A stretch of 64,000 nucleotides of DNA. It comes from Escherichia coli. Lineage in GTDB: Bacteria; Pseudomonadota; Gammaproteobacteria; Enterobacterales; Enterobacteriaceae. Shown piece by piece: positions 4,246 to 43,906 of this stretch (the stretch's first letter is position 1; the number at the start of each line of letters is the position of its first letter). The stretch is from assembly GCF_016026235.1 (NCBI RefSeq), contig NZ_CP065613.1; one strand, given 5' to 3'. A program made the translations under genes and the position numbers. Below the pieces are notes generated by a model that saw only the letters and a list, made by a program, of their open reading frames with translations, had not been told where the DNA came from and searched no databases.

Positions 4246-4418
4246 CTCCATTTTTCTTTCTTCCAGTCAGGACTGCATCCGATTAATCGTAAGGCAGTAT
4301 GACTTTCTGTGAGACAGATGCTGGCCAACGTGGGATATTTAACGCGGGTTAACATCGTTGTCAGAGCCGCATGGGTGAGCTGTTGCTACACCCCGGTATT
4401 TCCACCACGGAGGCCAGC

Positions 4419-5546
4419 ATGAACAACAATAACACATTGTACGTCGGGTTAGATGTTCACAAAGAATCGATTACTGTCGCTTATGCTATCAATTCAGAAC
4501 CTGTTGAACTGATGGGTAAAATTGGCACATCACCTACTGATATTCAGAATCTTTGTAAACGTCTCAGGTCAAAGTCATCGCAGGTCAGTATCGTTTATGA
4601 AGCGGGGCCCTGTGGTTATGGACTTTATCGTCGGCTGGTGAAATCCGGTTTTGACTGCATGGTCTGCGCCCCCTCACTTATCCCGAAAAAACCGGGGGAG
4701 CGGGTTAAAACCGATCGCCGTGATGCCATCAGACTTGTGCGTTCACTGCGTGCAGGAGATCTTTCTGCTGTCTACGTACCCGGCATTGAAGATGAGGCAT
4801 TCCGGGATTTGGCCCGGGCATGGGCATCTGCCCGCGATGATTTACGGCATGCAAGGCAACGTCTGAAATCGTTTCTTCTGGTTCATGGGGTCCATTATGT
4901 CGGGCGAGCAGATTGGGGCCCTGCACACCGACGCTGGCTCAGCAAATACTCATTCGAAAGTCCCTGGCGACAATTAGCTTTTGACGAACACCGTCGTACA
5001 ATAGAAGACCGGCAGGCACAATGTGAACGGCTGGAATCCGCCCTGAAGGAGGCCGTTACCGAATGGAGGCTGTATCCGGTAGTAGAGGCGCTGCAAGCCA
5101 TGCGAGGGATTCAGTTTATTACTGCGGTTGGATTAATTTCTGAACTGGGTGATCTGACCCGTTTTGAACATCCACGACAACTGATGTCATGGTTTGGTAT
5201 CACGCCATCAGAATATTCATCGGGTGGAAGCAGACATCAGGGCAGCATTACCAAAGCCGGAAACAGCTATGCCAGAAAGCTATTGGTCGAGGCAGCGTGG
5301 AGTTACCGTCATCCGGCACGCATCAGTCCGGCAATACAAAAAAGGCAGGAAAATTTACCCCGCCCCGTCATTGACAGAGCATGGGATGCTCAACTCAGGC
5401 TTTGTAAGAGGTATCGAAAACTTCAGGCCAAAGGAAAGAATGTCAATATTACAATTGTTGCTGTTGCACGTGAGCTGGCGGGTTTTATCTGGGATATGGG
5501 CCGAATAGCAATATCTGTCGCACAACAACCACAATGTCACAAATAA
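4419..5546 (+). CDS. IS110-family transposase/recombinase (375 aa from the SD-preceded ATG; the ORF track starts at 4371)
   Basis: N-terminal LYVGLDVHKESI RuvC-like DEDD domain and C-terminal Transposase_20-type region (GITPSEYSSGGSRHQGSITKAGNSYARKLL); GGAGG 7 nt upstream of the ATG at 4419. Confidence 0.8.
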   Translation: MNNNNTLYVGLDVHKESITVAYAINSEPVELMGKIGTSPTDIQNLCKRLRSKSSQVSIVYEAGPCGYGLYRRLVKSGFDCMVCAPSLIPKKPGERVKTDRRDAIRLVRSLRAGDLSAVYVPGIEDEAFRDLARAWASARDDLRHARQRLKSFLLVHGVHYVGRADWGPAHRRWLSKYSFESPWRQLAFDEHRRTIEDRQAQCERLESALKEAVTEWRLYPVVEALQAMRGIQFITAVGLISELGDLTRFEHPRQLMSWFGITPSEYSSGGSRHQGSITKAGNSYARKLLVEAAWSYRHPARISPAIQKRQENLPRPVIDRAWDAQLRLCKRYRKLQAKGKNVNITIVAVARELAGFIWDMGRIAISVAQQPQCHK

Positions 5547-5748: not shown

Positions 5749-6134
5749 AATTAAACCTAAAAAGAAAATCGTCAAAATTAGAGATTCCGGTTTGACACGG
5801 AAAGTCATATCAGCGCTGACGGGTGACCCTAAGCCCTGATAATCATAGCTTAAGGTGAGGATTTATGAGGGATTAATTAGGAAAAGTAATAATTAATTTG
5901 TTGTCAGTCGGCGATGTTTGTTAGGCCAATATTTCAAAAATAATCCAGCTTGTCGTCAATAATTGCGATAAAGAGATAAATTAAAGTTAAATAATTAAAT
6001 CATTAAAAAATTACGCCATTAAAATGCGAGGCGTCTTCCGGATTAGAATCGATAAAACAGAATGGGTTAAAGAGAGCGATATAATAGCGGCGGGTGCTTG
6101 AGGCTGTCTGTCTCAGGCATTAGCTGAACGGCAG

Positions 6135-6195
6135 ATAGAGAAAAGCCCCGAGTGATATTTTACCATCAACCCGAGGCCCCCTATATGCTGAACAC
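6135..6195 (-). ncRNA. sokC: sokC antisense RNA of the hokC/mokC locus (position inferred)
   Basis: In hok/sok loci the Sok RNA is antisense to the mok start region; TTGACC (reverse complement of 6223-6228) is a candidate -35. Coordinates are approximate. Confidence 0.3.
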
Positions 6196-6394
6196 ATGTA
6201 GAGTGCCTCTTACTGACCGTAAGGTCAAGGAGAAGAGAGCAATGAAGCAGCATAAGGCGATGATTGTCGCCCTGATCGTCATCTGTATCACCGCCGTAGT
6301 GGCGGCGCTGGTAACGAGAAAAGACCTCTGTGAGGTTCACATCCGAACTGGCCAGACGGAGGTTGCTGTTTTCACGGCTTACGAATCCGAGTAA
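6185..6394 (+). CDS. mokC: MokC, overlapping regulatory reading frame of hokC
   Basis: 69-codon frame MLNTCRVPLTDRKVKEKRA... that contains hokC in the same frame. Confidence 0.65.
   Translation: MLNTCRVPLTDRKVKEKRAMKQHKAMIVALIVICITAVVAALVTRKDLCEVHIRTGQTEVAVFTAYESE
6242..6394 (+). CDS. hokC: HokC (Gef) small membrane toxin
   Basis: 50 aa MKQHKAMIVALIVICITAVVAALVTRKDLCEVHIRTGQTEVAVFTAYESE, matching the Hok family. Confidence 0.85.
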   Translation: MKQHKAMIVALIVICITAVVAALVTRKDLCEVHIRTGQTEVAVFTAYESE

Positions 6395-6417
6395 GAGCAA
6401 CGGCGGGGAGTGATCCC

Positions 6418-7711
6418 CTGAGGGATCCCCAGAAAATTTAGTAAACCATTATCATATTGGTATACCGTTGCTGTAGAACTTTCAGCCCTGCGTCAAGTGA
6501 CAGTGTGTTTAGTATGAGTGGAGAATGTCGAATCACATTCTCCGCCAGTTTTAATAACGAGATGACTCGCCTGTGCTTCACTGTATTTGCCTGATATTTA
6601 TGATGTATCCCTTTGTTTTCCAGGCTGAAACCGCTTAACCACATAATGATACTGGCTAATGTTGCGATCAGACTCAATACCGTGACCCGCCCGGATGAAT
6701 GACTGGCACCAAACCGTAGTCCAAATCCCCAGCGAGGATTTTTTTCATCCCTGAAATTTTGCTCAATTTGCATTCTACGGCTGTATAATTTCATTACCTG
6801 TTTTGGCGAGAACTCAGTACTGTTTGTGAAAATAAACCATGGTGATTTCCCGGCAGTACGAGCTTTAGCCGTCACCGATGGTCTGGTTGCTCTTTCCTTC
6901 GAGCGTTTAAATCTACGACCTTTAGGCTTACTTTTATAAAGATAAAAATGCCCTTCATGTTGTGCATTTTTATCTCGACCCAGCAGGCCTTCACCTAAAT
7001 AAATTGCTGTCGTTGATGCTTTTGTGCCTGAGTCCGACACCTTTTCCCAGCCATTACCAACATTGTAATAATGATTGCCCAGTACCCGGCAAATATAGGT
7101 CCAGCCACGGGAGCGGAGCTGTTGGAACCATCGCCCCTGAAAACCGGCATCTGTAATAACAATGACATCAGTCCCGGGGGAAAAGCACTCAGCAAGCGAT
7201 TCCAGAAAACGCTCATGTACATCTGCATTCGCTGTCTGTGATGATGGAACGACACAACTCATCAACGGTAAAGAACGCCCGTCACATGCCAGGCTTGCCC
7301 GCAAAAGCTGAAAACGAGAGGCATGATAAGCACTCCAGTCAATGAGTATCACAACACGAGACATTCCCCGCGTAATCTTTTGGGTAATTCGCTGAAAAAT
7401 GGTGGAAACCTCATTTTGCAAATGTCGATTCCCCAACAGTCGATCCACCCGCTTTATTTTGTTTTTAACTGATGCCGTACCGGTTAAATGACGCCCGATA
7501 CTGGTAAGTGTGAGGGAAGCGCCATTTATTACAGCATTAGTTGCGTCAATCAGTGATTTTTGACGGTAAAGATGCAAAGGGGCCAGTATATTGTTAAGGA
7601 AATTTTGGCATAATGAACGTGCAGGCATAGTGGTGATCTCCTTGAAATTGTTAGCACAATCAATTAGATCACATCTCACTATGCCTGTCTTGTTTTCTGG
7701 GGATTCCTCAG
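6418..7711 (-). mobile_element. IS10-like (IS4-family) insertion sequence, intact copy, about 1.29 kb
   Basis: Terminal inverted repeats CTGAGGGATCCCCAGAAAA (left) and CTGAGGAATCCCCAGAAAA (right, reverse complement), resembling IS10 ends; flanked by direct repeat GAGTGATCC(C) at 6408-6417 and 7712-7721. Confidence 0.8.
6438..7628 (-). CDS. IS4-family (IS10-group) transposase, 396 aa
   Basis: Shares IS10 transposase motifs (KIKRVDRLLGNRHL, DWSA, DAGF, YSRRMQIEQNFRDEK, QANTVKHRRV); true start is MPARSL at 7628, the ORF-track start at 7727 lies outside the element. Confidence 0.85.
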   Translation of the reverse strand: MPARSLCQNFLNNILAPLHLYRQKSLIDATNAVINGASLTLTSIGRHLTGTASVKNKIKRVDRLLGNRHLQNEVSTIFQRITQKITRGMSRVVILIDWSAYHASRFQLLRASLACDGRSLPLMSCVVPSSQTANADVHERFLESLAECFSPGTDVIVITDAGFQGRWFQQLRSRGWTYICRVLGNHYYNVGNGWEKVSDSGTKASTTAIYLGEGLLGRDKNAQHEGHFYLYKSKPKGRRFKRSKERATRPSVTAKARTAGKSPWFIFTNSTEFSPKQVMKLYSRRMQIEQNFRDEKNPRWGFGLRFGASHSSGRVTVLSLIATLASIIMWLSGFSLENKGIHHKYQANTVKHRRVISLLKLAENVIRHSPLILNTLSLDAGLKVLQQRYTNMIMVY

Positions 7712-7760
7712 GAGTGATCCCCGCCACTTTACAGGTGCTCGCATATCTTCAACGCACCCT

Positions 7761-42934: not shown

Positions 42935-43186
42935 TGGAGCACCTCAAAAACACCATCATACACTAAATCAGTAAGTTGGCAGCATCACCCTCGTTATTAA
43001 AACTGGCGGAGAATGTGATTCGACATTCTCCACTCATACTAAACACACTGTCACTTGACGCAGGGCTGAAAGTTCTACAGCAACGGTATACCAATATGAT
43101 AATGGTTTACTAAATTTTCTGGGGATCCCTCAGGAGCAGTCCCCCACTCCGGCTTAACACGACAATCGCCTTTCAGCGAAACACAA

Positions 43187-43906
43187 TTACTCTTTATCGC
43201 CCAGCAGAACGGATTCCAGTGCGATTTTGATCATGTCGTTGAAGGTGGTCTGACGCTCAGCGGCAGTGGTCTGCTCGTGAGTGCGGATGTGGTCAGACAC
43301 GGTGCAGATGGTCAGGGCTTTCGCGCCAAATTCTGCAGCGACGCCGTAGATACCAGCCGCTTCCATTTCCACGCCGAGGATGCCGTATTTTTCCATCACG
43401 TCGAACATTTCGCCGTCCGGAGAGTAGAACAGGTCAGCGGAGAACAGGTTACCAACGCGAGCATCAATGCCCAGTGCTTTAGCCGCGTCTACCGCGTTAC
43501 GCACCATGTCAAAGTCAGCGATAGCGGCAAAGTCATGATCTTTAAAACGGATGCGGTTAACTTTGGAATCGGTGCAGGCACCCATACCGATAACGACGTC
43601 GCGCAGTTTTACGTGCGGCAGAACTGCGCCACAGGAACCCACGCGGATAATTTTCTTCACGCCGAAATCGGTGATCAGTTCTTTGGTGTAGATGGAGCAG
43701 GACGGGATACCCATACCGTGACCCATTACGGAAATTTTGCGGCCTTTGTAAGTACCGGTGAAGCCCAGCATACCGCGAACGTTGTTCACTTCACGGGCAT
43801 CTTCAAGGAAAGTTTCAGCAATATACTTCGCACGCAGCGGGTCGCCTGGCATCAAAACTACGTCAGCGAAATCGCCCATTTCTGCATTAATGTGTGGGGT
43901 AGCCAT
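43187..43906 (-). CDS. deoD: Purine nucleoside phosphorylase DeoD
   Basis: [33 protein letters not shown]...; 239 aa. Confidence 0.97.

Follow-up and report, generated by a model that had tools for sequence, protein, structure and literature searches.

The 64,000-nucleotide stretch of Escherichia coli DNA studied here (contig NZ_CP065613.1 of assembly GCF_016026235.1; "the window" in the following) carries two copies of one insertion sequence (IS), the first within a hairpin just 3' of the toxin gene hokC and the second within the terminator of deoD. Both are very likely copies of ISEc60, a 1294-bp element of the IS4 family and the IS10 lineage, whose transposase of the DDE (aspartate-aspartate-glutamate) type is proposed to pick its targets by sequence. 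The target is the palindrome 5'-R|GGG-WWWW-CCC|Y-3', in which the bars mark a 10-bp stagger, and it is used in either orientation. An earlier account made from the letters alone (the sequence-only reading) had described two IS10-like copies in the loops of GC-rich, terminator-like hairpins, flanked by direct repeats of 9–10 bp, and had compared their targeting with that of IS186.

Two copies of ISEc60 and the boundaries of the element

The 19-nt terminal repeat CTGAGGRATCCCCAGAAAA occurs at exactly four places in the window, namely 6418-6436 (+), 7693-7711 (-), 41893-41911 (+) and 43115-43133 (-), where none would be expected by chance (0/100 shuffles), and two elements are therefore delimited. 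Copy 1 (6418-7711, minus strand) is complete with 1294 bp, featuring its right inverted repeat (IRR) at 6418-6436 and its left inverted repeat (IRL) at 7693-7711, which agree at 18 of 19 positions. Its single open reading frame (ORF; 6438-7628, minus strand) encodes, without frameshift, a transposase of 396 amino acids (MPARS...MVY), and the element is bordered on both sides by the 10-bp sequence GAGTGATCCC (6408-6417 and 7712-7721). Copy 2 extends on the plus strand from 41893 to 43133, between two 10-bp copies of GAGCAGTCCC (41883-41892 and 43134-43143). These boundaries had already been recognized in the sequence-only reading, but the copy is not intact: nucleotides 1-329 of ISEc60 (41893-42221) and its last 144 nt (42990-43133) stand on either side of a 768-bp insert (42222-42989), which takes the place of 821 bp of the interior. 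The insert was named IS1 on the basis of GGTAATGACTCC..., which we take to be an IS1 end. It seems that IS1 inserted here and that the DNA next to it was then deleted, and copy 2 cannot encode the transposase.

The name ISEc60 rests on the labels given to near-identical copies by the Prokaryotic Genome Annotation Pipeline (PGAP) of NCBI and on the exact protein. Over its full length, copy 1 is 99.9% identical to RefSeq copies labelled "IS4-like element ISEc60 family transposase", including 38 places in E. coli FDAARGOS_943, and the exact protein, named ISEc60 family at NCBI, is present on 202 contigs, e.g., of S. dysenteriae and enteroinvasive E. coli. Judged by transposase and termini, with the ends CTGAGGRATCCCC, the element belongs to the IS10 lineage of the IS4 family. 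The transposase scores 360.5 bits (cut-off 152) against NF033591 (transpos_IS4_2), which is common to ISEc60, IS10A and ISSfl1, whereas InsL of IS186 matches NF033592 instead. Identity amounts to 35-36% with IS10A/ISVsa5 (36% over 93% of the length, E = 5e-63) and to 52% with ISSfl1, the nearest named relative; a search of PDB sequences with the ISEc60 transposase gave no significant match. In an alignment of ISEc60, IS10A and ISSfl1, the DDE residues D97, D160 and E289 are invariant, and so is the signature Y282-R285-E289-K296 (YREK). The former align with the residues that we take to be D97, D161 and E292 in IS10 numbering. The spacing of the latter, Y-(2)-R-(3)-E-(6)-K in region C1, is the signature of the IS4 family (PMC2266710).

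The termini of ISEc60 are identical to those of IS10A at 13 of the first 14 bases, so that the IS10-like transposase and ends reported in the sequence-only reading both hold. DDE spacing, YREK signature, single ORF, short terminal repeats, a duplication of about one helical turn and the score of the hidden Markov model are all as in the IS4 family. The IS10 subgroup has been characterized by a size of 1200-1350 bp, 5'-CT ends and 9-bp direct repeats (De Palmenaer et al., PMC2266710 Table 1). ISEc60 conforms to it in size, in its 5'-CT ends (CTGAGG...) and in the clustering of its transposase, but not in the 9-bp duplication.

The length of this duplication depends on where the element ends. 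Empty sites in other genomes hold a single copy of the repeat at hokC, deoD and hokB, which identifies the flanking repeats as target duplications, and the flanking sequence is different at each other locus examined. The first eight sites all featured G at -1 and C at +1, and a 12-bp duplication around a shorter element (TGAGG...CCTCA) was considered as well; it was ruled out by targets with A at -1 (loci L141, L145, L147, L148 and L153 of our collection) or T at +1 (L147, L153). All of these keep the element ends CTGAGG...CCTCAG, and since the ends stay constant despite the changed neighbours, the terminal C and G belong to ISEc60, giving an element of 1294 bp and a duplication of 10 bp. Among 19 copies read on both sides (17 distinct sites; E. 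coli/Shigella copies plus L117), the duplication measures 10 bp in 18 and 11 bp in one, from S. dysenteriae (L138). Consequently, the direct repeats described before are real, with 10 rather than 9 bp.

A palindromic target and its repeated use

Further copies were gathered by exact-protein look-ups, by a 19-mer scan of species-representative genomes and by a metagenome scan with a 31-mer specific for the ISEc60 clade, resulting in 53 unique IRR-side and 27 unique IRL-side flanks from about 60 distinct sites in E. coli/Shigella, Kosakonia, an Erwinia-like symbiont and metagenomes. In the IRR-side flanks, position 1 is G in 48 of 53, position 2 is G in 41 and A in 8, and position 3 is again G in 48. 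Positions 4-7, which follow, are A/T-rich, and the second half mirrors the first with C in 45 at position 8, C in 42 or T in 10 at position 9, and C in 51 at position 10; outside the duplication, C (43) or T (10) stands at +1, and G or C at +2 in 49. The same logo is obtained reading outward from either end of the element. A target logo built from other copies, the check proposed along with the sequence-only reading, thus gave a strong palindromic motif across about 60 sites, of which the pattern GAG-N3-TCC, noticed before in the two window targets, turns out to be a weak and partial reading of GGG-N4-CCC.

The preference extends beyond the core. Of 132 unoccupied GGGN4CCC sites in the collected DNA, just 29% have G at -1 and just 33% have C at +1; the flank preference of used sites is therefore real and no by-product of the core motif. 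With a position matrix trained on 71 flanks (the window and L010 left out), we scanned the window after removal of both elements. Among 61,429 positions (mean score -16.2, standard deviation 7.2), the site of copy 1 ranks 1st with a score of 14.9 and the site of copy 2 ranks 11th with 9.6.

Both of these sites are hairpins, in agreement with the sequence-only reading. The hokC toxin ORF (6242-6394, plus strand; ORF and mokC/hokC annotation, mokC start at 6152) has its stop codon 13 nt before the duplication of copy 1, and Rfam sok gives a full-length match at 6092-6244, just upstream of the hairpin. When the flanks of copy 1 are joined, they read GGCGGGGAGTGATCCCCGCC and fold, starting a few bases past the hokC stop, into an 8-bp stem (GGCGGGGA/UCCCCGCC) with the loop GUGA. 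In the window, the 5' arm, the loop and the start of the 3' arm of this split hairpin, GGCGGGGA-GTGA-TCCCCGCC, lie at 6402-6417 (plus strand), and the remaining CGCC is found at 7722-7725. Past the stem, the hokC strand reads ACTTTACAGG and the opposite strand GTTGCTCTTA, i.e., the hairpin is devoid of the U-tract of an intrinsic terminator. The target of copy 1 is hence a hairpin in the 3' region of hokC that is terminator-like in shape only. Other E. coli, O157:H7 TR01 among them, have the empty hokC-dnaJ site in one piece at 100% identity, and 3815 of 5425 complete E. coli genomes show no interruption there. The hokC/ISEc60 junction of the window is present in only one complete genome, FDAARGOS_943, to whose lineage the window therefore probably belongs. 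A gene for a 391-amino-acid IS110-family (DEDD) transposase was also observed at 4371-5546, just upstream of sokC/hokC, an arrangement shared by L010; together with copy 1, it brackets the hokC locus by two different IS elements.

For the second target, the description as a classic intrinsic terminator was confirmed. The deoD terminator split by copy 2 spans 41873-43152 (minus strand), and positions 43187-43189, read as the complement, give the stop codon of deoD. The emptied sequence, AAGCCGGAGTGGGGGACTGCTCCGGCTTTTT on the deoD strand, forms a 12-pair stem with the loop GGGA, followed by U5 (TTTTT), about 45 nt past the deoD stop, and folds at -22.8 kcal/mol (z -3.4). A terminator scan likewise marked the site as terminator-like in an empty-site genome (L157). 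Elsewhere the empty site was matched in one piece at 99.6% identity, and 4064 genomes have it uninterrupted. The deoD-side intergenic region that holds copy 2 contains an IS1397-family (IS3) element in E. coli strain 1190 (L156, 1119-2467).

Some sites were used more than once. Between uidA and uidR, two strains (L001, L152) carry ISEc60 on identical 10 bases, one in each orientation, and the hairpin 3' of hokB, GCGCGGGGAAAATCCCCGCGC, had the same 10 bases used in both orientations (L002, L149) and was also entered with the 11-bp duplication (L138), so that this G4N5C4 hairpin served at least three times; it is uninterrupted in 5079 of the 5415 E. coli genomes with a match. The first base of ISEc60 is C and its last is G, by which the Y and R flanks are regenerated at both junctions, and an occupied site remains a good target that is open to re-insertion. 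At hokB, a tandem pair was in fact found (L002 1418-4015 / L003, GCA_031665585.1), comprising two complete ISEc60 with outer duplications GGGATTTTCC and, between them, a third 10-mer GGGATTTACC with one base changed. A second insertion into the restored target would account for the pair, though not for the changed base of the middle 10-mer.

The terminal repeats of ISEc60 themselves hold a G-run/C-run palindrome, GGGATCCCC in IRR (6418-6436, 43115-43133) and GGAATCCCC in IRL, which resembles the target motif but has a spacer of 2-3 bp. A further copy (L007 1418-2711, GCA_031665325.1), located between ygcF-like and ygcE-like genes, features the duplication GCGAGTTCCC at the start of the repeat GAGTTCCCCGCGCCAGCGGGGATAAACC. 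We take the latter to be the repeat of the E. coli type I-E CRISPR (clustered regularly interspaced short palindromic repeats) system, and ISEc60 would in this case have inserted into a CRISPR array.

The hokC hairpin is a frequent point of interruption as well. For about 1610 of the 5425 complete E. coli genomes (~30%), the match to the empty hokC query is partial and, among the matches listed, breaks off at the hairpin, and 821 complete genomes contain the K-12-type IS186 junction; IS186 in the other orientation or other elements are candidates for the remaining ~790. The fold-back element of hokC is presumably disrupted when IS186 inserts there (PMC3562002), and ISEc60, inserted at nearly the same position, should likewise do so.

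Homology with IS10/IS50 suggests that ISEc60 moves by cut-and-paste. A transposase dimer would bind both IS10-like ends and excise the element, and the symmetric complex would then capture a bent duplex target containing the 12-bp palindrome 5'-R GGG WWWW CCC Y-3', with each subunit probably contacting one GGG/CCC half-site in a symmetric manner. Strand transfer 10 bp apart, followed by gap repair, would finally turn GGGNNNNCCC into the duplication. As the motif is palindromic, either orientation can be used, and as it forms the top of many GC-rich stem-loops, ISEc60 lands in the deoD terminator, which it splits, and in the hairpins that directly follow hokC and hokB on the 3' side. The 12-bp rule and the 10-bp duplication make the sites of ISEc60, as well as the terminators and regulatory hairpins at risk, predictable. 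This is relevant for Shigella and enteroinvasive E. coli lineages, in which the element is expanding, reaching up to 38 copies in one genome (NZ_CP065615).

Sequence, structure or survival

Some observations weigh against a choice of target by the 12-bp motif alone. A few sites fit the motif poorly, e.g., GGGAAACGTC (L139) and GCTTTGACCC (L009), and all sites are survivors in genomes rather than primary insertion events, so that selection may have shaped their distribution. At least four T in outward positions 14-20 were found in 31% of the used flanks compared to 10% of unoccupied half-sites of similar score (p = 6e-4); from the 12-bp motif alone, fewer terminators would therefore be expected than are seen. 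The folds of used sites are also a little more stable (p ~0.01), in a comparison unmatched for motif score in which they score higher as well. Something beyond the motif probably contributes, be it hairpin structure, AT-rich bendable flanks or the purging of insertions within genes. An enrichment in terminator hairpins, for which a test had been suggested in the sequence-only reading, is accordingly supported by the T-tracts, but about half of the sites form no strong hairpin, and the sequence motif is a better-supported determinant than the hairpin as such.

A tenable, though not favoured, explanation accepts the motif as real and attributes the concentration at terminators and 3' hairpins mainly to survivorship, with insertions in genes being purged and those at terminators or 3' of toxin genes tolerated or even favoured, e.g., because they silence hok. 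Intergenic DNA makes up about 12% of the E. coli genome. According to the gene tables, it accommodates about 10-11 of the 17 distinct E. coli/Shigella sites, and the excess of T-tracts over comparable unoccupied half-sites, the interruption of the hokC hairpin in ~30% of complete genomes (again with the break at the hairpin among the matches listed) and the presumed loss of the fold-back element upon IS186 insertion (PMC3562002) point in the same direction. Survivorship can, however, neither yield a base-specific 12-bp consensus nor account for the re-use of identical 10 bases in both orientations. Moreover, the target motifs of IS186 are themselves enriched in non-coding DNA (Lee et al., PMC5009759), i.e., the distribution of a motif alone already gives part of such a bias.

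We consider it rather improbable that the transposase recognizes structure, such as extruded cruciforms or single-strand hairpins at replication forks and transcribed terminators, and that GGG/CCC merely mirrors the tops of stable hairpins. Folding at -12 kcal/mol or better was found for 8 of the 17 distinct two-sided sites and at -17 or better for 4, compared to 18% and 4% of unoccupied GGGN4CCC sites and 3.5% and 0.5% of random windows. The T-tract enrichment beyond the motif could be read in the same way, as could the preference of a sister clade (see below) for hairpin tops with different bases. The stability comparison of used sites given above (p ~0.01) is, however, unmatched for motif score. 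In addition, the polarity of each clade is strict, with position 1 being G in 48 of 53 flanks of ISEc60 and C in 30 of 32 flanks of the ISSfl1 clade, whereas a pure reader of structure would take both. About half of the sites, several of them in genes, fold weakly and have nothing but the short motif (L004, L148, L153 and the uid site), and the matrix, using nothing but sequence, already places the window sites 1st and 11th.

There is hardly any chance left that the flanking repeats are parts of the element termini, the outcome that would have overturned the sequence-only reading, or that the element is plain IS10 with a 9-bp NGCTNAGCN target: its first and last bases, C and G, are indeed the commonest flanking bases, so that 10, 11 or 12 bp seem possible at many sites, and its ends are similar to those of IS10, but the flanks vary from locus to locus, empty sites hold one copy of the repeat, the boundaries are fixed by targets with T at +1 or A at -1, identity of the transposase with IS10A reaches only 35-36%, and the 10-bp duplication has no fit to GCTNAGC, by which both variants are already refuted.

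ISEc60 among known elements

IS10 (IS10R/IS10A, ISVsa5), the type of the IS10 subgroup, shares with ISEc60 the size class, a single ORF of ~400 amino acids with DDE and YREK residues, the match to NF033591 and termini of the form 5'-CTGA...ATCCCC. The target consensus of IS10 is reportedly NGCTNAGCN, said to go back to Halling and Kleckner in 1982, which is not what the ISEc60 logo GGG-W4-CCC displays. IS10 further differs in its duplication of 9 instead of 10 bp, and ISEc60 is found here outside a composite transposon. The descriptor "9-bp duplication" of the IS10 subgroup is hence not universal.

By their transposases, the elements with the 19-mer form two clades that are ~50% identical to each other. 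ISSfl1 and its relatives in Photorhabdus, Xenorhabdus and Pluralibacter (e.g., L155 319-1619, L011, L019, L058, L029 and L030) resemble ISEc60 in the 19-nt repeat, in a size of ~1.3 kb, in their insertion into GC-rich palindromes or hairpin tops and in duplications of 9-10 bp. Unlike ISEc60, the ISSfl1/Photorhabdus/Xenorhabdus clade uses the mirror-image target C-S-C-N3-4-G-S-G: in 32 flanks read outward, C stands at position 1 in 30 and at position 3 in 29, with G or C at position 2 between them, and positions 7-12 are G-rich. Duplications read on both sides comprise CCTGAAGGG (ISSfl1, 9 bp, one copy read) as well as CCCTGTCGGG, CCCCACGGGG and CCCCATAGTA (10 bp), and many of the sites are tops of terminators, e.g., ...GCGGGGTTTTT. 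The Pluralibacter branch targets GGC-N4-GCC, e.g., GGCTTAGGCC. With near-identical ends and mirrored half-sites, the two sister clades are a swap made by nature, from which the surface that recognizes the target in Tn10/Tn5-type transposases could be located. Within IS10 residues ~125-140, mutations at Cys134 reportedly alter the target specificity (Bender and Kleckner, 1992).

Further observations were made in this group. The element of E. coli E69 (L030) has a duplication of only 7 bp, CTTATGG, within GCCCCTTATGGGGGC. Pragia fontium and Serratia harbor non-coding elements of 204-343 bp with the same IS10-like ends and 9-10 bp duplications (CGCTTTTGCG, AGCTTCCGCT, CCCTTTGGG; L048 2283-2559, L050 156-496, L051-L053, L064 280-483). 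These are probably miniature inverted-repeat transposable elements (MITEs) mobilised by transposases of the ISSfl1 clade, and many of them sit in the repeated hairpin CGTCATCCCCGCGAAAGCGGGGATGACG. In Xenorhabdus griffiniae (L035-L043), independent copies share ~30 bp of similar flank, CGCGTAGCGGGGAGATATAAGATGCATCTT, which hints that members of a dispersed repeat family have repeatedly served as targets.

In the searchable literature, we found no account of the target rule of ISEc60, of a 10-bp duplication in the IS10 subgroup or of the mirrored preference of the sister clade, and a literature search for IS elements targeting terminators returned nothing relevant. ISEc60 itself is already catalogued, and IS186 and IS231A are known examples of elements that target G-run/C-run palindromes. 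The present results are a solid but specialist addition to transposon biology.

Among other elements that seek out palindromes, IS1397 and ISKpn1 of the IS3 family are specific for the loops of repetitive extragenic palindromic (REP) sequences and insert into the loops of chromosomal palindromes. They differ from ISEc60 in their unrelated transposase family and mechanism and in targeting units of REP and of bacterial interspersed mosaic elements (BIME) instead of GGG-N4-CCC. IS231A, described in 1994 by Hallet et al., reportedly prefers GGG(N)5CCC with AT-rich flanks. It belongs to the IS231 subgroup of the IS4 family and is like ISEc60 in its G-run/C-run target, but has a Gram-positive host, 5'-CAT ends, a transposase of a distant subgroup and a spacer of N5. 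For its subgroup, some selectivity in the choice of insertion site and duplications of 10-12 bp have been described (PMC2266710).

The closest parallel in targeting is offered by IS186, which inserts into 5'-GGGG(N6/N7)CCCC-3' in either orientation and at few, repeatedly used sites (Lee et al., PMC5009759). IS186/IS421 and ISEc60 have in common a highly specific, GC-rich palindromic target, insertion in either orientation, the repeated use of few sites and an enrichment in non-coding DNA. In K-12, a strain without ISEc60, IS186A even occupies the same hokC hairpin (L108, 15387-16731), with the duplication GGATCACTCC (hairpin positions 6-15) offset by 1 bp from GGGATCACTC of ISEc60 (positions 5-14). 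The likeness to IS186 drawn in the sequence-only reading therefore holds for the G-run/C-run palindrome and for the shared hairpin, and less clearly for a G4-N6-C4 rule: whereas the spacer of IS186 is N6-7, ISEc60 prefers N4 (G3-4 N4 C3-4) inside its 10-bp duplication, and G4N6C4 hairpins are entered with a one-base shift that brings one end up against GGG or CCC. The hokB hairpin (G4N5C4), uninterrupted in most genomes but used at least three times by ISEc60, is a further point of difference. A variable duplication length at one target is named for IS186 in the title of Sengstag et al. 1986 (cited in PMC3562002), which is paralleled by the 10 and 11 bp of ISEc60 at hokB. IS186 belongs to a different sublineage of the IS4 family (NF033592), and its ends (CATAAGCGC...; IS186-type CATAAGCGCTAACTTAAGGGTTG), including those of IS186A in K-12, are unrelated to the CTGAGG... 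of ISEc60; the resemblance is therefore functional and no sign of membership.

The hokC hairpin shared by ISEc60 and IS186 and the repeated insertion of ISEc60 at hokB provide a simple, sequence-based reason for the frequent presence of IS elements 3' of chromosomal hok genes. A broader reading, which we offer as a speculation with rather less than even prospects, is that an IS10-subgroup lineage comprising ISEc60, ISSfl1, the Photorhabdus/Xenorhabdus elements and the MITEs has specialised in the tops of GC-rich stem-loops, its clades having switched between the half-site rules GGG..CCC, CSC..GSG and GGC..GCC. If so, the hok-family toxin loci would be recurrent IS traps, explaining why IS elements have long been noticed immediately 3' of hok genes in chromosomes, and ISEc60 would have converged with the unrelated IS186 on G-run/C-run hairpins.

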